IMG/VR virus record: IMGVR_UViG_3300042914_003037
Span: 1-53,014 of that record
Length of the DNA: 53,014 nucleotides
From: a virus
Lineage: Duplodnaviria; Caudoviricetes
Reading direction: 5' to 3' (one strand)
Each line of letters opens with the position of its first letter. The stretch's first letter is position 1. A program made the translations under genes and the position numbers. Positions 13,636-37,294 of this stretch are shown here, piece by piece. The notes under the pieces are model-generated. The model made no database searches, was not told the origin of the DNA, and was given only the letters and a program-made list of their open reading frames with translations.

Positions 13636-15021
13636 TTATACAACGCAGTAGCGTGGATTGTTGATTGTTTCCAACATCACTGCTTCTGGAGTAAAGTCCT
13701 TAGCAGCAAGAATTGCCTTCATGATGCTTGGGCTGAACCCACTTACCATTGCAACACCACTCTTGTTGAACTCAACTGGGATATTCCCATGTGAATTCAA
13801 ATTCCAGAAAACAATCTTAGGTGTTGCATATCCAGTCGATTCATACTTTCTTTCGATCATCTGCATTGCAGAATCATCGAATTTAGTGCAATAATCGAAC
13901 TGCATATCGCTAAGAATTAGCAAATACGCTGGCATGTCAGCAGCAGGCACCGAGTTATCTACTGCTACCTTTAGGATAGCATCAAATGCACGATGCAAGT
14001 TTGTATTCATGCCCCATTCTGCCTGACACAATTGAGTATACTTGCTAAGAATGTTTCCATTCAACTTCTCCAACTTTGTGTTTTGACTGAAAGTCAAGAA
14101 CAAGTCCTTGAACGCTCCGCGATTCTTGTCTGCACAATACAAGCCAAGAGCCACGGCAACATCAATGCATTGCAGATGTGGATTATCTCCAACTCGGCAA
14201 CTCATGCTTCCGCTAACGTCTACCATAGGTAGAACATTTGCATCAGACATATAGTTAGGCAAAGCCTCCCACTGCGCCGCTGCCACGGTCTTATCTCCAG
14301 TCTTGATGCTACGAATAACATCATGTGGGTAAACCGCACCAGCATTCACCTTGGCATCGCCAGAAGCCAACTCAGCCTTGTACTCGCGGTAAGCATCAGC
14401 AGCATTTCGATTGAATGCCTTTTGATAGCGCGCAGCAGCCAAACTTGGCACATGGCTAAAGTTGATGTTGTCCCAATCCTTAGCGCACATTTGAGTTTCG
14501 ACTACCTTAGTGGCGTTGACCAGCATCTTACGATACTGTTTGGGAGTCAACTCCATAAACTTACGCAACTCAATGCTTACATCGCCCTTTCGGGGCATCC
14601 ACTTGGCACATAGTCCGTCGCCAGACTTTAGCGCAGCACTGATTAGTGCATATGCCTTGTTCTTTACATCTGAAGTCTTAAAGATCAACAGATCGTCCCA
14701 GCGACCGAAAGTAGATACATGAGGCAACATGCGATCCAACAGTGTTGGATGCAAATTTTCCAGATGCATCAAGATGTCGCGAAATATCTGGCGTTCGCCA
14801 GCGCCACCACGAACATCACGAGTCCACAAAGCAAGTCGTAGTGCCAGAGTAGAGTCGCACTGAATGGCGCGCTCAAAATCTGGAACAATTTGCTTGCCAC
14901 GGCTTGCGCCTGCCTTGTAGAAAAAATCTACAAGGGGACTTAGAGAACTTTGAAGTGCTCGCATTCCATTGGTGGTGCGAGTTTCGAACTTAGTATTTTG
15001 AACTGCTTGCGCGAATGTCAT
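13636..15021 (-). CDS. DUF2828 + vWA protein (TROVE/Ro60-like architecture)
   Basis: RDVRGGAGER, GRWDDL, AKWMPR; MIDAS DVSGSM; ILSDMQFD; FWNL; VSGFS. Confidence 0.85.
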   Translation of the reverse strand: MTFAQAVQNTKFETRTTNGMRALQSSLSPLVDFFYKAGASRGKQIVPDFERAIQCDSTLALRLALWTRDVRGGAGERQIFRDILMHLENLHPTLLDRMLPHVSTFGRWDDLLIFKTSDVKNKAYALISAALKSGDGLCAKWMPRKGDVSIELRKFMELTPKQYRKMLVNATKVVETQMCAKDWDNINFSHVPSLAAARYQKAFNRNAADAYREYKAELASGDAKVNAGAVYPHDVIRSIKTGDKTVAAAQWEALPNYMSDANVLPMVDVSGSMSCRVGDNPHLQCIDVAVALGLYCADKNRGAFKDLFLTFSQNTKLEKLNGNILSKYTQLCQAEWGMNTNLHRAFDAILKVAVDNSVPAADMPAYLLILSDMQFDYCTKFDDSAMQMIERKYESTGYATPKIVFWNLNSHGNIPVEFNKSGVAMVSGFSPSIMKAILAAKDFTPEAVMLETINNPRYCVV

Positions 15022-15177: not shown

Positions 15178-15297
15178 AAACTGTATACGTTTCTTGCCTG
15201 CTGCTCTACCATCTGAGCTATATTACTCACTAGGAATAACAGTTGGATTTGAACCAACGACACACTGGGTGATTTAATAGTTGCTGTATGTATACAA
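15178..15297 (-). ncRNA. Y-RNA-like RNA with permuted tRNA domain (motif copy 2)
   Basis: TGTATAC-ATACAGCAA, T-arm GTTGG-TTCAAAT-CCAAC, loop-closed acceptor helix, D-arm GCTCAGATGGTAGAGC, then GTATACA. Confidence 0.75.
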
Positions 15298-17164: not shown

Positions 17165-17254
17165 TGGCGGGTAGTGAGGGATTCGAACCCCCGAGGGCAT
17201 TTCTGCCCTAACTGCTTAGTAGGCAGCCGCCATAGTCCGCTCGGCCAACTACCC
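17165..17254 (-). tRNA. tRNA-Ser(ACT), A34
   Basis: Cloverleaf, loop CT-ACT-AA, long variable arm, G73, encoded CCA. Confidence 0.85.
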
Positions 17255-17263
17255 AAATATTTT

Positions 17264-17893
17264 TCACTCAGTATTTAGTGATGAATTAGTCTGTTGAATT
17301 TTTTGTCTTTTCTCTAACTTCTTACGAAGTAGAGTATGGATTCCAGGATTAATTCTAAGTACATTAGGCATAAATTCGTGCCTAATATAATTGCGAGTAT
17401 AACGAGTATCGTTATTACTAAAATCTTCAATCCACCGAACATTTTTTCTACGCGCCCAATTTTCTAAATCATACTTTCTATTTAATAGAAATGGTCGAAT
17501 GACATTGTTGCGTCTGTATGGTAGCAATTTGCTTTGTCCGTGCAAACTACTCCACGCCCATGTTTCTACTACATCGTCAAGATGATGCCCGGTAACAACA
17601 CACTCAAATTGACTTAAAAATTCATATCTCTTGTCTCTCCAGTATTCTTCCGCACTTAGTTTGAGAGGAATTGACGAATCCTCAATTCGCTTAGTGATAA
17701 GATTCAAGTTTCTATCTGAGCATTCCCGTGTAATGAAGTCGAGAGCACGATCACTGGTTTCTGTTCCGTGATGAAAGAATGCAACATTTACTGCATGGTT
17801 GCGAGAGAGAAAGTCAAGCAACACCATACTATCGATTCCGCCGCTACACGCGACAGTCACGACACGAGGAATTGACCCAAGAATCTTGATCAC
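17264..17893 (-). CDS. tilS: tRNA(Ile)-lysidine synthetase-like PP-loop ATPase (catalytic domain only)
   Basis: ACSGGIDS, TGHHLDDVVET, IRPFL, EDFSN..YTRNYIRH. Confidence 0.88.
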   Translation of the reverse strand: MIKILGSIPRVVTVACSGGIDSMVLLDFLSRNHAVNVAFFHHGTETSDRALDFITRECSDRNLNLITKRIEDSSIPLKLSAEEYWRDKRYEFLSQFECVVTGHHLDDVVETWAWSSLHGQSKLLPYRRNNVIRPFLLNRKYDLENWARRKNVRWIEDFSNNDTRYTRNYIRHEFMPNVLRINPGIHTLLRKKLEKRQKIQQTNSSLNTE

Positions 17894-22728: not shown

Positions 22729-23193
22729 TCAAGTGGCATACCAAATTTCTTTGTATCCTTCTTGTTCAGTTGGATCCTGCCAATGACGAATCATGCCGTC
22801 AATAACATTCTTAGGAATGCTTTTGCCAACACGACTATTCAAGCGACGAGTCAATTCTTCCTCAGGAGGAGTCTTAAACACAATCGCAATGTGATAGTAA
22901 TTTGGCAGCATTACAAATTTCTTTTTTCTGCTGCTGATGTTGGTTGAGGTTTGATCCCAAACAATGTTCTTTCCTTGACTCGATGCCAATTTTACTTGTT
23001 CGATCATCACATTTACGGCAGTCGGCATATACTCACTAAAAACTTGATCGTAAGTTTTGCCGACGCTTTGTGCGTACTCTTCAACCAACTTGTCAGTTGA
23101 AATGTATGCATAATTCTTCAACCATTCCTGATTGGAAACCCAAGTGCTTTTTCCACTACCAGGAACACCAACCAAAACATACGCAATAGACAT
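22729..23193 (-). CDS. P-loop kinase (AAA_33 / polynucleotide kinase-like)
   Basis: GVPGSGKST, ISTD, IVWDQT. Confidence 0.85.
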   Translation of the reverse strand: MSIAYVLVGVPGSGKSTWVSNQEWLKNYAYISTDKLVEEYAQSVGKTYDQVFSEYMPTAVNVMIEQVKLASSQGKNIVWDQTSTNISSRKKKFVMLPNYYHIAIVFKTPPEEELTRRLNSRVGKSIPKNVIDGMIRHWQDPTEQEGYKEIWYAT

Positions 23194-23663
23194 TATAAAT
23201 TTTCTCCCATATACTTACGATAATCTTCGCGCCAATTGTGACTTTTTACATCATAGTCAAGTCCCAATTCACTCATCATAAGACGCATGACGCGAGTATT
23301 AGGACTACGAAATTTTTCTACTGCATCGAAACCAAGTTTAGTTCCGACTTCGACTACAGCACCGCTGCGACAAATACCCGCAAAACAATGAACAATTACA
23401 TTCATTCGATTATCAAGTGCATGCTGTAGCAGTCCAATCAACTCTTTTGCTTGTTTTTCGCTAACGAACATTTCTGGATCGTCAGCTTCATCGTTATCAT
23501 CGATATCAAGAAATTCAAATGCATGTGTTTCCTTAAACACATGACGCGGCTTTGGAAACCAACTACCTGGATCCATGATCTGAATTAGCATAGAGTTCGG
23601 CCCAGCATCATGATGATATCCCAAAGAGATATCATCAGCAGCACAATTTTCAATCCAAGGCAT
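23193..23663 (-). CDS. protein-tyrosine/dual-specificity phosphatase-like protein
   Basis: VHCFAGICRS CX5R motif. Confidence 0.85.
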   Translation of the reverse strand: MPWIENCAADDISLGYHHDAGPNSMLIQIMDPGSWFPKPRHVFKETHAFEFLDIDDNDEADDPEMFVSEKQAKELIGLLQHALDNRMNVIVHCFAGICRSGAVVEVGTKLGFDAVEKFRSPNTRVMRLMMSELGLDYDVKSHNWREDYRKYMGENL

Positions 23664-26928: not shown

Positions 26929-27002
26929 TGGTGCCTCCGGATGGTTACGCTCCACCGACAACCGCTTATCAAGCGGACGTTATACTATTTAACTAAGGAG
27001 GC
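26929..27002 (-). tRNA. tRNA-Ile(GAT), atypical T-loop
   Basis: TTGATAA loop, T-loop AGCGTAA, CCA. Confidence 0.8.
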
Positions 27003-27098: not shown

Positions 27099-27220
27099 TA
27101 ACAGGTTCTCTTTTTAAGTGCTACCACTACACCAATACTGCCGACCAAACAGTATCTGGGATTCGAACCCAGCCCTTCTTTTTTTCTGAAAGTTTAAAAT
27201 TATTTGCTGAAAAGAACCTA
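27099..27220 (-). ncRNA. Y-RNA-like RNA with permuted tRNA domain (motif copy 6)
   Basis: TAGGTTCT-TTTCAGCAA, T-arm CTGGG-TTCGAAT-CCCAG, ATACTGT/GCAGTAT closed acceptor, D-arm GTGTAGTGGTAGCAC, AGAACCTG. Confidence 0.75.
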
Positions 27221-27797: not shown

Positions 27798-27874
27798 ATT
27801 ATTTTGGCAGTGAGTGTGGGATTTGAACCCAAACCTGCGTTTTTTTTCAATCATGCTGGATAGGCAAATTAAAT

Positions 27875-30799: not shown

Positions 30800-31049
30800 T
30801 TTATATTTGCCTCACTTTTGGATTGATGCTGCACTTATTTATCGCATGTCTTCATTGCAGTTCTTCTTCACCATATTTCAACACACAGAATTCCCTGAAT
30901 CAACCCCCACTTAAAGCAACGGCGATCCATACATCAACTCACTTTATCGTTCATTGAGTCTGGAGTCGAACCAGAACTATGTGTTGAAATATAGTGCGAC
31001 CCATTGTGGGGTGAACTTCGAAACCACCATCTCGCCGCGCTTTAGACCA

Positions 31050-31754: not shown

Positions 31755-32490
31755 AGTAAAATGCTATAGTAGTTGGGGAGGTGAGATGCCCGCGAACTAC
31801 ACTATTATTTATCACAGTGCTATACAAATACTTCAATATGGTGGGGGAATTCCACCCCCTCTCAATGTGCAGGCTTGCTTACAGACGGTTATGTATTCCC
31901 GTTCTTCCCAACACCGCGATCTTTGAGTAAGACCATGTCTTAATGGTCGCAAGAGACACAGTGAGCAATCCCAACTTCTCATAGCCAATCAGCCACTTAG
32001 GTTAAACCCCGCGCCACTTACATGCTACCATATTTCAACACTCTACCCAACCTAGCCCGGGATGCTGTTTGTACATTAGAGGAGTGCTGAAATATGGCGC
32101 TGTATTTTTGCCCAAGGAGATTGACCTATTGTTCTTCTCTTCACACTGCGACAGCTTTGAACTGAGAGATCGCAGTAACTTGGAATACAGCATAACTTGG
32201 CGTACATGGAGATCATTTCAATCGTCTTTCGCTCTCGCAAGAGTACCCTCAATCTTCGGGCTCATGTACATAAACTAGTTGACAGTATATGGATTCTTTC
32301 CTGTCAGTCACGGAATTACTTCGAATAACCACGAGCATACTTCTCCGTAAAAGGGAGGTGCAACGTATCCGTGTCTTAAAACTTGATGAAGCATTCTGGA
32401 TTCGAACCAGAAGAGCGATACTCAGACCCTGCTAGCGGGTCATATGAGTGCTAGCACGCCGATACTATCTCACGCGATGCTTCAATAACT

Positions 32491-32579
32491 TGGTGGGTCC
32501 TGATGGTAACGCTCCACGAGGCAACTTCCTTACAAAACAATGCCAACGGATTTACAGTCCGCCGTAAGGGGCAGAACCC
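32491..32579 (-). tRNA. D-armless tRNA-Tyr(GTA)-like gene
   Basis: GGGTTCT/AGGACCC-A-CCA, GCGGA-CTGTAAA-TCCGT, short linker instead of a D-arm, expanded variable region. Confidence 0.65.
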
Positions 32580-32909
32580 AAATTCTTGCCGGTTACGCTT
32601 TCCGGCGCTGCTTGTAGTCTCCACAAATCAGGAGTAGTACACAGTCGTAAATACAAATTCTTGCCTGTAGTTCAACATGAAGGACTTTACATGCCTACAC
32701 CCACGTATTACGTTCCGACCGGGTTAGCCGTTGCAGACATCCTTCTGCACTAGGTACCATATTTCAACACACTACAGCTCATCTGAGGATTTCGACGTCC
32801 CCACAGGGTCCAGCACCACCTGGATGGTTCCTGCCTCTTGCGATAGCACTTGTGTAGATCCTTCCAACCACTGTCTACAAGCCCTTGGGTAGGCTAATGC
32901 GCTGAAATA

Positions 32910-32984
32910 TGGTACTCCCGAACGGTTTCGATCCGTCTTTTCCGCCTTGAAAGGGCAGCGTCCTAGCCAGTAGACGACGGGAGC
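32910..32984 (-). tRNA. tRNA-Glu(TTC)
   Basis: Cloverleaf with CCA. Confidence 0.9.
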
Positions 32985-33079
32985 AAATACTCTATGCTAA
33001 TTGTATAAAGAACTCGCTGATTTCTCAGCATGTTGACAGTATATCAGGACTCTGATTTATTGTCAAACTGTTTTTGTTT

Positions 33080-33164
33080 TGGTGCCCGGAGCCGGGGTCG
33101 AACCGGCACGCCGTTAAGCGAGGGATTTTAAGTCCCTTGTGTCTACCTATTTCACCATCCGGGC
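33080..33164 (-). tRNA. tRNA-Leu(TAA)
   Basis: Cloverleaf, long variable arm, CCA. Confidence 0.93.
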
Positions 33165-33170
33165 AATATT

Positions 33171-33247
33171 TGGTGCCCCCACCTGGACTCGAACCAGGAA
33201 CCTAACGATTATGAGTCGTTTGCACTAACCAATTGTGCTATAGGGGC
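33171..33247 (-). tRNA. tRNA-Ile2/Met(CAT)
   Basis: Cloverleaf, CGA-CTCATAA-TCG arm resembling bacterial Ile2, CCA. Confidence 0.88.
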
Positions 33248-33680
33248 ACGATCTAACTTACTATATTTCAACACACTATAGCTTCCTCTTGAGGCTCACT
33301 GGCCGTCTGACGCAGTGCTGGGCCTTGTACCCAGAAAATGTGCTGAAATATAGTATCACGCTACGTCAACGACTCTGAAAATCAGAATCTCAGTTGGCGT
33401 GATACAAAAACTCTATGCTAATTTTTAAAGATCGTCGCTGATTTCTCAGCGTTGAAGACAGTATATCAGAGTTCTGATTTATTGTCAAGAAACTGCCAGG
33501 TAGCTTAATGTGTGATTTCCACTACCCTGTTACTCTGTATCAGTCTAGGCAGTGTTCAAGGACTTTTGTCTCATGTCTTACCTAGCATCAACCTACGTCA
33601 CACTGTTTTCGACAGTTTGATAACTATAACAGAACCCTGATTTATCGTCAATTGCTATGCTCTGTAGGCTGACGCTTCAT

Positions 33681-33752
33681 AAACTCTAGGGGGATTCGAA
33701 CCCACCGTAACCCGCTCAAGGAGCAGGTATCCTATCCGCTAGATGATAGAGA
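33681..33752 (-). pseudogene. degenerate tRNA (loop TCCTTGA, no CCA)
   Basis: D- and T-arms recognisable, acceptor stem broken. Confidence 0.5.
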
Positions 33753-34504
33753 CTCCGATTTAGCACCGCGGCAACGGGGGTTCATCGGGTGAAGTAACAG
33801 ACCTTCTGACGATTGCCGCCATCAGCCTACAGAACACAACAACTTGTTAAAGAACTTCAGTGATTTCTCACTGTTAAAGACAGTATATCAAACTTCTGAT
33901 TTACTGTCAACTCCATTTTTCTCAATGATTAGATCGAAATGCACTCGCATCTGCTTTTTGAGCCGCGTGTTCTCCACCCTTGATTCCTAGACTAGTACTA
34001 GGGGTGTGTGCCCATTTACACTAGCACTTCGATCTAATCACTGATTGTTAAAGAACTACGCTGATTTCTCAACGTTAGAGACAGTATATCAAACTTCTGA
34101 TTTACTGTCAAGTTTCTATAGTGCGTTTATCAGCCCGCCCTGTTAGTTCAAGCTACGCACCCTTGCCGGATGCTCACACCGTTACGTGTGGAGGTTGATT
34201 CCTCTGTTGTAAGCCCCCGTAACGAGAGGCTTGCGGGCTGATAAACACACTACAGATTGTTAAAGAGCGACAGTTTACGCTACTGTCAAACGAAGGCCTG
34301 TGGGTTCTCAGGCTACCTCACACTAGACGTTATACTGACAACTGGGATTGTGCTTCCCGAAACAACCTGTAGCGGCTGTGGGAGTTTGTTGTCCCGCTTT
34401 TGTGCCTGCTACACTGTGACCCTGTTTGTTGTCAGTTCTCTAGCGTATGAATACATTATAGTTGAGACTTGATTTATTGTCAAGCATTAAGTTGTTAAGT
34501 TGTT

Positions 34505-34530
34505 TGGCGCGACTGGAGGGATTCGAATCT
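34505..34530 (-). pseudogene. 3' tRNA fragment (T-loop, acceptor strand, CCA)
   Basis: TTCGAATCCCTCCAGTCGCGCCA immediately after the endonuclease stop codon. Confidence 0.65.
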
Positions 34531-35325
34531 CTATACGCGATTTGATTTTCGTTTAAAACAATTATTTGTGTAGAATTCCAGAGCGTATCGTTTCATATAG
34601 TGATTTACTTTTTGCTGAGGCACTTCTAAAATTAGAGAGGCTTTTTTAACCCACCCAAACACGGAGAAGTTTATGTCAGACTCAAGTAATTTTTTAATTT
34701 TTGATAAAAACTTTTCATCGGTTTTTCTTTTTGTTTTTGTTCCCCTTGCCTCTGAGTTATTCATCAACTTATGCTGATCACGCAACATCTTTACATTGAA
34801 ATACTCAGTATAGTCTGGCTGTTCCCAACGAGTAATCAATTTTTTTAGGATTTCTTCATTGAAGCAACTAGAATAGTGCAATTCAATTAGTTTCCAGCCT
34901 GCATCAACAATTTCGTTGTGTCTATTTTGATAATACTCTTTAAGAGTGCCGTCTCTATTGTAATGCTGATTGCCGTTTATTTCAATTCCAAGTTTAATAT
35001 CAGGAAAAGCAATATCTATAGAGTAGTGGCGCGACTCTAACGGACTCCATTCTTCAACGAAGAGAATTTGCTGTTCAATTAAAAATTTCTTTACTCGTTC
35101 GCACGGCTCAGATTTGAATTTAGTGCTTCTCTTCCATACATGTTTGTCTGAGTTTTGCAGAAGATAGTTTATTCTACTTTTTGAAATTTTTTCTATAGTC
35201 TCAGATGTCACTATCTTCGCACAATTTACTGAGCAATACTTACTCCTTCTTCTGTCGTGAACTACTCCACAGCGTTCACAGTTTTTTTGTTTTCTAGGTC
35301 TAGACATAATTCGAACTTTCATCAA
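34531..35325 (-). CDS. putative homing endonuclease, Vsr/DUF559-like
   Basis: N-terminal CxxC..CxxxC; YSIDIAFPDIKLGIEINGNQHY...GWKLIELHY. Confidence 0.8.
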   Translation of the reverse strand: MMKVRIMSRPRKQKNCERCGVVHDRRRSKYCSVNCAKIVTSETIEKISKSRINYLLQNSDKHVWKRSTKFKSEPCERVKKFLIEQQILFVEEWSPLESRHYSIDIAFPDIKLGIEINGNQHYNRDGTLKEYYQNRHNEIVDAGWKLIELHYSSCFNEEILKKLITRWEQPDYTEYFNVKMLRDQHKLMNNSEARGTKTKRKTDEKFLSKIKKLLESDINFSVFGWVKKASLILEVPQQKVNHYMKRYALEFYTNNCFKRKSNRV

Positions 35326-35351
35326 CAGTAGTATTAATAAAAGTTCAAAAA

Positions 35352-35430
35352 TGGAGCCCCGGAGAGGATTCGAACCTCCATTGACTCCATTACACTGCTA
35401 CGCTTTAGAAGAGCGTTGTGGTACCGGGGC
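35352..35430 (-). tRNA. D-armless tRNA-Arg(TCT)-like gene
   Basis: GCCCCGG/CCGGGGC-T-CCA, ACGCT-CTTCTAA-AGCGT, canonical T-arm, 7-nt linker instead of a D-arm. Confidence 0.7.
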
Positions 35431-35605
35431 ATTGTTCGAATTTCATAATTAAGTTATTATATTGCTTTTTGATTTATTTGTCAACAGAAATGTTGATTCA
35501 GTCACTACTGTTTTGATTAAGTTGCTTTAGCAACTTTCGTTTTCTTTTAGATATAGCTTTGTCAGATATGTTTAACATCTAACACTCATACATGAAATTG
35601 TAAAT

Positions 35606-35874
35606 TGGCTCCCTGTCGTGGGATCGAACCACGGACCAACAGATTCTGGTTTGTGTGACTTTCGCCACTCCCTGGACTTTATCTTGACCATAGCATTTCT
35701 GCCTTAGGCCCCTGCCGTCAAGTCTCTACACGTTCCCATTTCTGGGCTTCGCTCGGTATTGCCATATGCTTTCGCACTTAGATTTCACCGAATTTGACAG
35801 GATTTTCAACTACTGTTTCCAGTAGAAGTGTCAATTTCTAACAGTCTGCTGCTCTACCGCTGAGCTAACAGGGA
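35606..35874 (-). tRNA. tRNA-Asn(GTT) interrupted by a group I intron
   Basis: Exons 35840-35874 and 35606-35645 join into a perfect cloverleaf. Confidence 0.92.
35646..35839 (-). mobile_element. group I self-splicing intron (194 nt, no ORF) at tRNA position 36/37
   Basis: 5' exon ends in U, intron ends in G; core AAATTCGGTGAAA, AATACCGAGC, GTAGAGACTTGAC, AAGATAAAGTCC. Confidence 0.9.
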
Positions 35875-35884
35875 ATTGTTTGAT

Positions 35885-35959
35885 TGGTGCCGGATGTCGG
35901 GTTCGAACTGACGACCTACCGCTTACAAGGCGGTTGCTCTACCACTGAGCTAATCCGGC
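35885..35959 (-). tRNA. tRNA-Thr(TGT)
   Basis: Cloverleaf with CCA. Confidence 0.93.
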
Positions 35960-36166
35960 AAAATCTTTGAAAGAACTAATTTATTTAGACGTAGTATATC
36001 ATCATCGGTATTTTTGTCAAACTGTTTGTTGTCCAAAATTTGTTGATGATTGCTAACGTCAGTAAAGATAACTCCTGTAGTGAAGGCACAATTCGTTCCA
36101 AGCGTTTATTGCATCGTCGTGTTGTCGTTGTATTTCGTTCCACTCATTCATAGTTATCTCCTTATT

Positions 36167-36249
36167 TGGTGCCCTAACTCGGACTCGAACCGAGAAGCCG
36201 AAGCAGTAGATTTTGAGTCTACCGTGTTTACCAATTTCACCATCAGGGC
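36167..36249 (-). tRNA. tRNA-Leu(CAA)
   Basis: Cloverleaf, long variable arm, CCA. Confidence 0.9.
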
Positions 36250-36256
36250 AATATTT

Positions 36257-36332
36257 TGGTGCTGCCTCGTGGGATCGAACCACGTTCCAAGGCTCTTCAG
36301 GCCTCCGCTATGACCACATCAGCTAAAGCAGC
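36257..36332 (-). tRNA. tRNA-Phe(GAA)
   Basis: Cloverleaf with CCA. Confidence 0.9.
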
Positions 36333-36346
36333 ATTATTTCATTATT

Positions 36347-36431
36347 TGGTGCACAAGAGAGGAATCGAACCTCCACGCCTTTCGGCACTACCACCTCAAA
36401 GTAGCGTGTCTACCAATTCCACCACATGTGC
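36347..36431 (-). tRNA. tRNA-Leu(GAG)
   Basis: Cloverleaf, long variable arm, CCA. Confidence 0.88.
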
Positions 36432-36463
36432 AGCGTGTATTCAAAGAACTTAGGGGTGACCGA

Positions 36464-36537
36464 TGGGGCGAAGTCGGGAATCTAACCCTGGCTAACTATT
36501 TCACAGATAGTTGTGCTAACACTACACTAACTTCGCC
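36464..36537 (-). tRNA. tRNA-His(GTG)
   Basis: G-1:C73, CTGTGAA loop, CCA. Confidence 0.85.
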
Positions 36538-36549
36538 ATCTGAAATATT

Positions 36550-36627
36550 TGGTCTGGGTGGCAGGCTCCGCCCCTGCGGCCTCCGGCTTCCAAAACCGGC
36601 CGTCTACTAGACTGACAATACACCCAG
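36550..36627 (-). tRNA. tRNA-Pro(TGG), atypical T-loop
   Basis: CTGGGTG/CACCCAG acceptor, TTTGGAA loop, T-loop GGCGGAG, CCA. Confidence 0.82.
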
Positions 36628-36636
36628 AATGTTCTT

Positions 36637-36732
36637 TGGACCGACGGGTGGGATTCGAACCCACATCAGTATACAGTGATACCACTCCAAGTTACCTTTG
36701 TCCGCGTTCGTAGCGCGGGGGGATACCGTCGG
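36637..36732 (-). tRNA. D-armless tRNA-Arg(ACG)-like gene
   Basis: CCGACGG/CCGTCGG-T-CCA, CCGCG-CTACGAA-CGCGG, canonical T-arm, ~37-nt variable region. Confidence 0.7.
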
Positions 36733-36751
36733 ATTGTTTGTTTGAATTTGT

Positions 36752-36827
36752 TGGTAGGTCTTGCTGGAATCGAACCAGCGGTCTTCACGATGTCAACGTG
36801 ACGATTTAGCCGCTAATCTAAAGACCT
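36752..36827 (-). tRNA. tRNA-Val(GAC)
   Basis: Cloverleaf with CCA. Confidence 0.9.
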
Positions 36828-36900
36828 GATGCTGTTGACGATTTGTCACATTGTCGCCGTCAACAAGGGCGAGAAATAACTTCAGTGTTCAAAAATTTGT

Positions 36901-36974
36901 TGGTGCTCCAGACAAGAATCGGACTTGTGATACATCCTTACCAAGGATGCGTTATACCATTTAACTACAGGAGC
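36901..36974 (-). tRNA. tRNA-Thr(GGT)
   Basis: Cloverleaf with CCA. Confidence 0.85.
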
Positions 36975-36978
36975 AATA

Positions 36979-37043
36979 TAACAGAATGCTTTTTTACGAG
37001 TCAAATTAGTAGTTTGATGTATAAGTTTGCTGTAAGCATTCTA
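36979..37043 (-). ncRNA. stem/WCAGCAA motif RNA copy 9
   Basis: TAGAATGC-TTACAGCAA..TCAAA-CTACTAA-TTTGA..GCATTCTG-TTA. Confidence 0.65.
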
Positions 37044-37049
37044 AAACTT

Positions 37050-37140
37050 TGGCGGAAGAGGGCGGAGTTGAACCCCCAAGGGCTTTCTAGGCCTCGACGC
37101 ATTTCAAGTGCGCTACCGTCGCCAGTCGGTTTGCTCTTCC
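37050..37140 (-). tRNA. tRNA-Ser(TGA)
   Basis: Cloverleaf, long variable arm, G73, CCA. Confidence 0.9.
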
Positions 37141-37180
37141 TTTGATCTATTTACACTAAATACTACGAGGAGAAATAAAA

Positions 37181-37294
37181 ATGCTTGAAACACTATTCTA
37201 TCTTGCAGTAGGCGCATTCATTGGATGGAACTTTCCACAGCCAGAATTCGCCAAAACTCTACAATCTAAGATTGTAGCACTATTCAAAAAGTAA
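37181..37294 (+). CDS. small membrane protein (37 aa, MLETLFYLAVGAFIGWNFPQPEFAK...)
   Basis: GAGGAG SD, CTAAATA motif upstream, hairpin at 37324-37355 downstream. Confidence 0.7.
   Translation: MLETLFYLAVGAFIGWNFPQPEFAKTLQSKIVALFKK

Follow-up and report, generated by a model that had tools for sequence, protein, structure and literature searches.

How does a phage that carries tRNA genes for most amino acids come to lack recognizable ones for arginine and tyrosine? The question is raised by the IMG/VR virus record IMGVR_UViG_3300042914_003037, a 53-kb phage-like contig of 53,014 nucleotides (hereafter the window, whose positions serve as coordinates throughout), which encodes a ribonucleotide reductase, homing endonucleases, and a long minus-strand tRNA array. 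ARAGORN reports 24 tRNAs in the window, none of them for Arg or Tyr and none at three sites at which tRNA-like genes without a D hairpin can be discerned. The cloverleaf with a D hairpin is regarded as universal outside organelles. From comparative sequence analysis, we propose that the three genes probably encode working elongator tRNAs (Tyr-GUA, Arg-UCU, and Arg-ACG) with a topologically permuted D arm. The observations behind this proposal are the anatomy of the genes, their conservation, the covariation of their helices, a base after a relocated GG that is linked to tRNA identity, and the complementation of the surrounding tRNA arrays.

Anatomy of three tRNA genes without a D hairpin

The three genes lie on the minus strand, at the coordinates that the original prediction, made from the sequence alone, had given, and in our reading of the sequence the acceptor stem, anticodon arm, and encoded CCA are intact in each. 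The acceptor stem has 7 or 8 bp, the CCA is preceded by the discriminators A, U, and U (Tyr, Arg-UCU, and Arg-ACG, respectively), and the anticodon arm has a 5-bp stem and a 7-nt loop (CUGUAAA, CUUCUAA, and CUACGAA) with U33 and a purine at position 37. Both Arg genes have a T arm with a 5-bp stem and a UUCRANY loop (UUCGAAU); the Tyr gene instead has a 4-bp stem and the loop AGCGUUA. No D hairpin is present between positions 9 and 26 in any of them: a link of merely 7 to 8 nt precedes the anticodon stem and 20 to 37 nt follow the anticodon arm, so that the D arm is replaced by a short connector like that of mitochondrial-type D-armless tRNAs.

The Tyr-GUA gene (positions 32491 to 32579; 86 nt plus the encoded CCA at 32493-32491, with the discriminator A at 32494) reads GGGUUCUG-CC-CCUUAC-[GGCGGA CUGUAAA UCCGUU]-GGCA-UUGUUUU-GUAAGG-AAGU-UGCC-UC-[GUGG AGCGUUA CCAU]-CAGGACCC-A-CCA. 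Its 8-bp acceptor stem pairs GGGUUCUG (32572 to 32579) with CAGGACCC (32495-32502), its anticodon arm spans 32545 to 32563 (anticodon GUA at 32555-32553), and 27 nt separate this arm from the T stem. The linker strand CCUUAC (32564 to 32569), for which we propose the role of the D-stem 3′ strand, pairs with GUAAGG (32528 to 32533), the putative D-stem 5′ strand; we term this helix h. The latter strand lies within the loop of a variable arm, whose helix v joins GGCA (32541 to 32544) to UGCC (32520-32523) and crosses helix h, resulting in a pseudoknot. The 4-bp T stem GUGG/CCAU with its noncanonical loop lies at 32503 to 32517.

The Arg-UCU gene (35352 to 35430; 76 nt plus the encoded CCA) reads GCCCCGG-UAC-CAC-A-[ACGCU CUUCUAA AGCGU]-AGCA-GUG-UAAUGGAGU-CAAU-[GGAGG UUCGAAU CCUCU]-CCGGGGC-U-CCA. 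It has a 7-bp acceptor stem, the 7-nt linker UACCACA, and 20 nt between the anticodon arm (35400 to 35416; anticodon UCU at 35409-35407) and a canonical T arm (GGAGG UUCGAAU CCUCU; 35363 to 35379). The 5′ strand of helix h, CAC (35418 to 35420), pairs with GUG (35393-35395), which is followed directly by the D-loop-like segment UAAUGGAGU, the two together occupying 35384 to 35395.

The Arg-ACG gene (36637 to 36732; 93 nt plus the encoded CCA) reads CCGACGG-UAU-CC-CC-[CCGCG CUACGAA CGCGG]-ACAAA-GG-UAACUUGGAGU-[GGUAU CACUGU AUACU]-GAU-[GUGGG UUCGAAU CCCAC]-CCGUCGG-U-CCA. It too has a 7-bp acceptor stem and a 7-nt linker (UAUCCCC), with 37 nt between the anticodon arm (36702 to 36718; anticodon ACG at 36711-36709) and a canonical T arm (GUGGG UUCGAAU CCCAC; 36648 to 36664). 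Its helix h pairs CC (36721 to 36722) with GG (36695-36696), which leads into the D-loop-like segment UAACUUGGAGU (36684 to 36696, including the GG strand), and an extra hairpin, GGUAU-CACUGU-AUACU (36668 to 36683), stands between this segment and the T arm. All of these elements are on the minus strand. The D-loop-like GG motifs noted earlier in the three variable regions are found in both Arg genes, whereas the GG of the Tyr gene belongs to GUAAGG and sits within a helix rather than free.

Existing models recover these genes poorly. The Rfam tRNA model (RF00005; gathering threshold, 29 bits) matches Arg-UCU alone of the three, at 37.6 bits, and its Infernal alignment reduces 15 D-arm model positions to 4 nt and opens a 17-nt insert in the variable region; Tyr and Arg-ACG have no Rfam tRNA match even at an E value of ≤10. 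Relaxed ARAGORN settings add no other minus-strand Arg or Tyr gene, leaving the three as the sole Arg and Tyr candidates in the window. The companion claim that the remaining array covers all 18 other amino acids stands for 17, namely, 15 called by ARAGORN, Asn with a group I intron, and Ile (relaxed ARAGORN and Rfam); Trp was not found by ARAGORN, with its relaxed or intron settings, or by Rfam.

Compensatory changes in the Arg/Ile/CAT-type family

Homologues of the Arg type were gathered with a seed pattern (GUAA, 0 to 2 nt, UGGAGU, 4 to 34 nt, and GGUUCGAAUCC) that matched 70 viral-contig stretches. These yielded 46 unique genes, of which L004, L020, and L027 (101 nt, with another layout) were left out, and the remaining 43 were aligned with MAFFT (alignment A1). 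R1, a covariance model built on phage homologues of the Arg type, gives Arg-UCU 75.3 bits and Arg-ACG 62.1 bits. A wider search with R1 left a clear gap between members (≥42.5 bits) and ordinary tRNAs (≤35.8 bits). In 50 de-duplicated sources, R1 recovered 73 members at an E value of ≤1e-6 (alignment A4). The anticodons of the 73 are limited to Arg, Ile, and CAU (UCU in 41, UCG in 10, ACG in 10, CCU in 3, UAU in 4, GAU in 3, and CAU in 2).

Helix h in this family joins columns 12 to 15, just 5′ of the anticodon stem, to columns 42 to 45, which end in the G of GUAA. In A1, the 12-45 pair is C-G in 43/43 genes and the 13-44 pair also forms in 43/43, being GC in 21, UA in 11, AU in 6, and CG in 5; the outer pairs form less often (14-43 in 29/43 and 15-42 in 11/43). 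In A4, both inner pairs form in all 73 members, 13-44 being GC in 39, AU in 13, UA in 11, and CG in 10, and sliding the 3′ partners by 1 to 3 columns drops the paired cells from 92% to 36 to 47%. At the Arg-UCU site, the helix h of homologues reads CUC/GAG, CGA/UCG, or CGG/CCG. Among the homologues of Arg-ACG (L026, L029/L061, L037, L220, and Xanthomonas phage X1, the last at 61 bits), L026 has a third pair, CCU/AGG, versus the two of Arg-ACG. The anticodon stem, paired in 94.5% of the A4 cells, covaries as well (e.g., CCGCG/CGCGG in Arg-ACG versus GCUGG/CCAGC in L220), as do the acceptor stems.

The stretch before the T arm is lengthened in 13/73 members, including the Arg-ACG subgroup and Xanthomonas phage X1. 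In the Arg-ACG subgroup, the second L025 gene, L066, and phage X1, the lengthened stretch forms a hairpin of unrelated sequence; the site of the extra Arg-ACG hairpin is occupied by GGA..UCC in L037 and by GUG..CAC in phage X1. The comparison of homologues that had been put forward as a check hence reveals a conserved architecture with compensatory changes in all stems and not random decay.

Borderline R1 matches in bacterial genomes (L205, L209, L212, and L224) are ordinary Ser or Arg tRNAs and were rejected. Separately, we observed a conserved 101-nt tRNA-like gene in eight viral contigs (L004, L007, L012, L020, L027, L033, L039, and L051), with a D-loop-like GUAAUGGAGU, a CCUCUAGGAGG hairpin, and a canonical T arm; its layout is unlike that of the Arg or Tyr type, and it is not counted in either family.

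The Tyr-type family

A pattern derived from the Tyr anticodon arm matched at least 118 stretches, giving at least 113 unique contexts, among which at least 23 unique short-linker Tyr genes were retained (A3) by a filter demanding 6/6 helix-h pairs. In a recount without this filter, no short-linker gene among the matches listed fails it, and each of the 18 genes with fewer helix-h pairs has an acceptor match at the offset of an ordinary tRNA, except L161, in which a D hairpin can be seen. A second pattern in which helix h was not involved recovered six more genes, from contigs of bacterial metagenome-assembled genomes (MAGs), all of which fit helix h. The 29 Tyr-type sequences together form alignment A5. 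The model R2 was built from A3, which includes the window Tyr gene, and gives that gene, its own sequence being in the alignment, 77.5 bits.

The complementarity of CCUUAC and GUAAGG, which had been pointed out from the window alone, recurs as a helix paired in 174/174 cells of the 29 sequences, with changes on both sides at 4/6 pairs. Its neighbors behave similarly: all 8 acceptor pairs form in 29/29 sequences, with both-side changes at 7/8; the anticodon stem is paired in 100% of the A5 cells; and the three modeled pairs of helix v are paired in 95.4%, its middle pair being CG in 19, UA in 5, and GC in 4. Three pairs of the T stem always form and a fourth forms in 13/29. In most members, helix h is followed by UGG and the T loop is UUCRAUU (UUCGAUU or UUCAAUU). 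The window gene and its twin in the viral contig L142 have AAGU in place of UGG and the T loop AGCGUUA; this twin is 100% identical, while the flanks are rearranged and the neighboring matched segments are 91 to 94% identical.

The window also has an ordinary-cloverleaf tRNA-Ile(GAU) (26929 to 27002, minus strand; 43.8 bits with Rfam), whose T loop is AGCGUAA and whose D loop is without GG. Taking the loops of the Tyr (AGCGUUA) and Ile genes together, neither of which is accompanied by a free GG, the lineage of this phage seems to use a different elbow.

The Arg and Tyr designs are independent because R1 finds no member in 24 Tyr-type loci; R2, for its part, finds no member with another anticodon in 78 sources. 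Both designs occur together in the window and in L026.

A relocated D-loop-like segment with an isotype-specific base

The order after helix h in the Arg/Ile type is UAA(Y)(Y)GG. A1 shows no variation in UAA or UGGAGU, which is in part a product of the search pattern, and UAA..GG is kept in all 73 members of A4, including those found by the model rather than by the pattern. The GG after helix h and a UUCRA T-loop core are likewise kept in all 73 Arg/Ile/CAT members, the window Tyr gene being the exception. The base that follows the GG depends on the anticodon: it is A in 64/64 Arg members, including 11/11 of those in which the pattern did not impose it, and U or C in 9/9 Ile/CAU members, with A in none of the nine.

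Ordinary tRNAs provide a parallel. Among 502 ordinary ARAGORN tRNAs from the same loci, the D loop has GGA in 31/38 Arg calls (of which at most 4 are family members with wrong boundaries) versus 50/464 of the other isotypes, and GGU is found in 20/23 of the ordinary Ile tRNAs. The D loop of an ordinary Arg tRNA in L209, AAUUGGAUA, matches the relocated AAUUGGA letter for letter. A20 is a major identity element for arginyl-tRNA synthetase (ArgRS) in Escherichia coli. Given this isotype-specific base after GG, we argue that the relocated segment is likely to be read as a D loop.

Array complementation and distribution

The genes of both families tend to stand where an ordinary tRNA is missing. 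In the 24 phage loci with the Tyr type, ARAGORN finds no tRNA-Tyr; the largest such array, in L171, has 37 tRNAs for 19 amino acids. For the Arg/Ile type, 65 of 71 anticodon instances are without an ordinary tRNA of the same anticodon in the locus, given that ARAGORN makes a same-anticodon call in 10/71 and that 4 of these 10 are the family gene itself. Only 4/73 members receive an Arg, Ile, or Met tRNA label from ARAGORN. In E. coli phage Antha, with 15 annotated tRNAs, no Arg candidate other than the family gene is present.

Matches to the type-II Arg(UCU) gene span 260 GenBank phage records (Escherichia, 137; Salmonella, 50; Klebsiella, 39; Streptomyces, 8; and others), the carriers including phi92 (100% identity), phages of the BASEL collection, and Felix O1-like phages such as wV8. 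Among the matches listed, the GenBank feature under the gene is mostly none, in some cases "tRNA-OTHER," "hypothetical protein," or "HNH endonuclease." A type-III copy in Maribacter phage Panino (79.8 bits with R1) likewise lies under a "hypothetical protein." The closest cultured relative of the window Arg-UCU gene is in Limnohabitans phage DC31 (89% identity over 81% of the query; 75.8 bits with R1), and that of Arg-ACG is in Xanthomonas phage X1. Across six cultured phages, R1 scores are 61 to 76 bits, the hosts being Escherichia (Antha and wV8), Limnohabitans, Streptomyces, Pseudomonas, and Xanthomonas, and overall the Arg/Ile design is found in phages of at least four host phyla. A main-clade Tyr-type gene has no BLAST match among GenBank phages.

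In 185,579 species genomes, the Arg pattern matched 32 stretches, of which only 7 genes on 5 MAG contigs are members; 4/5 of these contigs carry 3 to 16 other tRNA genes, and the fifth, L220, is a 641-bp fragment. The Tyr type is present in four Phycisphaerae MAGs and two others. These Tyr-type MAG genes are without an encoded CCA, and their surroundings are chromosomal genes (serpin, aldose epimerase, and solute symporter) or clusters of 74- to 75-nt tRNA-Leu genes. As an observation in its own right, clusters of 73- to 77-nt tRNA-Leu genes lie beside the Tyr-type gene in L227, L228, and L262 (Phycisphaerae genomes) and in the viral contig L148; these tRNAs seem to be without the long variable arm expected of Leu.

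The window DNA itself recurs in lake-water metagenomes, for which contigs of four runs from four studies were compared. Error-free contigs span the Tyr gene (X3, 32283-32632), Arg-UCU (X2, X3, and X4), and Arg-ACG (X4, 36388-36752). None of the best 40 of 61 lake-contig differences is inside the three genes, which says little. A search for RNA runs containing 32000-37200 listed none. A neighboring protein of 970 amino acids has no relative in viral contigs.

A proposed fold with a permuted D arm

Taking these findings together, we propose that in both families the D domain has been rebuilt 3′ of the anticodon arm, an idea of the original prediction that the comparative data support, given that the Arg and Tyr helices covary. 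In standard numbering, the order would be 1-7, 8-9, [22-25], 26, the anticodon arm, a linker, [10-13], [14-21], a linker or hairpin, the T arm, and 66-73. The D-stem 3′ strand (positions 22 to 25) would stay just before position 26 and run straight into the anticodon stem, like the normal 22-25-26-27, and the strand after the anticodon stem would take the place of 10-13 and lead into the D-loop letters. Thus, the D-stem 5′ side and the D loop (A14, G18, G19, and position 20) would have moved 3′ of the anticodon arm. In what we term class I, the Arg/Ile type, the moved module would replace the variable loop; in class II, the Tyr type, the moved strand would lie inside the variable-arm loop, giving the pseudoknot.

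The two strands, though in relocated order, would still pair, and their helix is likely to stack on the anticodon stem as a D stem does. The relocated GG could then reach the T loop and form the elbow, so that the L shape and the synthetase contacts (e.g., A20 for ArgRS) would be kept. In an L-shaped tRNA, position 8 is close to where the D stem ends at 13-22, and position 10 has position 44 beside it; by this textbook geometry, both new joins should be short. We infer that the three RNAs are transcribed, processed, charged, and used in decoding, with the three-dimensional contacts outlined above. As to what the phage would gain, our guess is an escape from host enzymes that attack or recognize tRNA via the D arm.

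Points against the proposal and alternative explanations

Several points weigh against this proposal. The Arg seed pattern itself fixed GUAA, UGGAGU, and the T loop, A4 was fitted to R1, and the starting Tyr set was filtered as described above; moreover, related sequences may beat shuffle controls without any structure. Helix h is short in the Arg type, the third pair (14-43) forming in 45/73 members of A4 and the fourth (15-42) in 19/73, and in Arg-ACG it has only 2 pairs, the next two positions being C.A mismatches. Folding of the single sequences lends no useful support, with z-scores of -0.39, -2.38, and -1.13 and different pairings in the folds of minimum energy. One of these, a CCA/UGG pairing in Arg-UCU, was rejected as unconserved because it needs A at column 13, yet A is there in only 13/73 members. 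For the window Tyr gene, the standard elbow contact is excluded because there is no free GG and the T loop is AGCGUUA. Finally, the Tyr type stands alongside an ordinary tRNA-Tyr in 4/4 Phycisphaerae MAGs, and it is present in just 3/151 sampled genomes of the Phycisphaerae class, 2 of the 3 with altered anticodon loops. We hence rejected the idea that it is the sole cellular tRNA-Tyr of these bacteria; with an ordinary tRNA-Tyr alongside it and with altered anticodon loops in two copies, the bacterial Tyr type may not be a standard decoder.

The latter observation also bears on the best surviving alternative, namely, that these are tRNA-shaped RNAs not meant for decoding, such as decoys for nucleases or tRNA-binding proteins, partners of a phage Ro-like RNA-binding protein, or regulatory RNAs. 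The window does encode a DUF2828/DUF7788 protein named "RNA-binding protein" in PHROGs (13636-15021, minus strand), as well as an AAA_33 kinase adjoining a dual-specificity phosphatase (22729-23663, minus strand), a pair that could possibly serve in RNA-end repair; further odd tRNA-like genes are present (see below), and the consulted portions of two studies describe phage tRNAs as counter-defence tools (PMC11555353 and PMC10264068). We nevertheless consider such a role unlikely for the window genes: the loops are canonical and present Arg, Ile/CAT, or Tyr anticodons and no others, the base after GG varies with the anticodon, and the genes supply exactly the isotype that an otherwise full array is missing, a complementarity for which a decoy would have no need.

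An alternative closer to our proposal is that the genes do encode functional tRNAs, of a floppy D-armless kind like those of mitochondria, in which helix h is no more than an extension of the anticodon stem and the GG, as a leftover, does not touch the T loop. Indeed, helix h is continuous with the anticodon stem via a small internal loop, the window Tyr gene has no free GG and a noncanonical T loop, and mitochondrial D-armless tRNAs are described as working with a flexible connector in the portions consulted of a review (PMC7609411). Nevertheless, UAA..GG is kept across the 73 members, the T loop of the Arg/Ile type is canonical, and the base after GG is isotype specific, all of which make a mere leftover improbable and favor the rebuilt D domain.

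It is also conceivable that only the gene is permuted and that the RNA is cut and rejoined to give the usual cloverleaf, by analogy with a red alga whose tRNA genes are circularly permuted, given that the order of the segments is what moving the 5′ half of the D arm behind the anticodon arm would produce. This we regard as highly improbable: restoring the normal order would take three cuts and three ligations within some 80 nt, neither a bulge-helix-bulge nor an intron signature is found, no RNA ligase is among the 39 window proteins scanned, and the same design is found in phages of at least four host phyla. Decaying tRNA pseudogenes or chance tRNA-like sequences are hardly credible, despite the ARAGORN misses (3/3), the Rfam misses (2/3), and the weak folding z-scores, in view of hundreds of homologues with compensatory changes in all stems, an identical Tyr gene in a diverged relative, and the position of the genes within tRNA arrays with CCA at their ends.

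Other tRNA-related features of the window

Three further genes in the window are unusual in other ways. The tRNA-Asn(GUU) gene (35606 to 35874, minus strand) is called by ARAGORN when introns are allowed and has a 194-nt group I intron in its anticodon loop (Rfam Intron_gpI, 59.8 bits, 35653-35851); some lake-metagenome contigs join across 35638/35935 with other letters between. A tRNA-like gene of about 100 nt (32380-32480, minus strand) has a good acceptor stem, a canonical T arm, and a long, odd middle with a CUCAUAU loop, and it ends in UCA, not CCA; most of the population variants listed from the lake runs fall at 32310-32461. Another (36545-36627, minus strand) has a 7- to 8-bp acceptor stem, CCA, and a 9-nt "anticodon" loop, UUUUGGAAG, with a CCGC-AGGG-GCGG hairpin in place of the T arm; relaxed ARAGORN labels it Pro(UGG).

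Besides these, four orphan T-arm-like motifs, each with a 5-bp stem and a UUCRANY loop and none in a called tRNA, are present on the minus strand (15242-15258, 27156-27172, 27816-27832, and 30959-30975) and may be parts of further unconventional tRNA-like genes. An intergenic repeat of about 70 to 85 nt recurs between tRNA genes (32985-33066, 33406-33488, 33844-33910, and 34041-34112) and is shared with the related contigs L026, L072, and L061; it may act as a promoter or in processing. The stretch 17264-17893 (minus strand) encodes a TilS-like PP-loop protein (PF01171), and a tRNA-Ser at 17165-17254 (minus strand) is unusual in its anticodon, ACU, which puts A at position 34.

Implications and comparison with known systems

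If the proposal is correct, a tRNA core whose strands are connected in another way can still serve standard bacterial synthetases and ribosomes. This would explain the Arg and Tyr tRNAs seemingly missing from phage annotations, call for a new model in tRNA finders, and offer new scaffolds for orthogonal tRNA engineering. Copies are present in phages of E. coli K-12, and therefore each step of the mechanism can be tested at the bench. A bolder extension, which we offer as speculation and think rather unlikely to hold in full, is that these genes constitute an overlooked class of tRNA for Arg, Ile, and Tyr, with a D-arm module that sits behind the anticodon arm and an L-shaped core that is rebuilt, spread through phages of at least four phyla (including phi92 and Felix O1-like phages) and some Phycisphaerae chromosomes; recognition by synthetase, EF-Tu, and ribosome would be kept and the D-arm handle for host enzymes removed, so that phage translation could survive tRNA-targeting immunity.

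We found no description of a phage tRNA without a D hairpin in the consulted portions of the full-text literature, a scope that includes PMC2674420, PMC4309531, PMC12916289, and PMC12851939, with supplements and subscription-only papers outside it. Within the same portions, the genome papers on wV8 and the PAK_P phages merely count tRNAs, and the work on phage tRNAs in counter-defence (PMC11555353 and PMC10264068) makes no mention of D arms. The original prediction had described D-armless tRNAs as known mainly from mitochondria, in agreement with the 2020 review of noncanonical tRNAs (PMC7609411), which places them there and in whose consulted text the word "phage" is absent.

Among the nearest known molecules are these mitochondrial tRNAs, i.e., metazoan tRNA-Ser(AGY) and nematode tRNA-Ser, which likewise have a short connector and no D hairpin and which serve, or are presumed to serve, as tRNAs, according to the portions consulted (PMC7609411 and PMC4013460). 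Unlike them, the phage Arg/Ile type keeps a canonical T loop and has, moved 3′ of the anticodon arm, both UAAYUGG(A/U) and a D-stem-like helix that covaries; further, the hosts are bacteria with standard translation factors, and the isotypes are Arg, Ile/CAT, and Tyr rather than Ser. The Tyr type also resembles the 8/4 allo-tRNAs, which have been described, along with 9/3 allo-tRNAs, by Mukai et al. (2017; PMC5389517), with 8/4 tRNA-Ser/His occurring in bacteria and phages. It shares with them the 8-bp acceptor stem, the 4-bp T stem, the long variable arm, and the setting in phage tRNA clusters. It differs in having no D hairpin, in that its variable-arm loop provides one strand of the D-like helix and thereby a pseudoknot, and in its isotype, Tyr; the consulted portions of PMC5389517 do not mention loss or relocation of the D arm.

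With ordinary tRNA-Arg and class II tRNA-Tyr (RF00005), the genes share the acceptor stem, anticodon arm, discriminator, and CCA and, in the two Arg genes of the window, a canonical T arm. The Arg type also has the D-loop letters AAYUGGA in common with them, and the Tyr type has the anticodon-arm sequence GGNNGACUGUAAAUCNNUUG. The genes differ from ordinary tRNAs in the order of the parts, which here runs 8-9, 22-25, 26, anticodon arm, 10-13, 14-21, and T arm. That the tRNA fold tolerates a changed backbone connectivity is evident from the circularly permuted tRNA genes of Cyanidioschyzon and from engineered circularly permuted tRNAs. In these, the whole molecule is permuted at its ends, and in the alga, processing restores the normal order. 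The design described here is different in that an internal module is relocated and the mature RNA is presumed to keep the new order.

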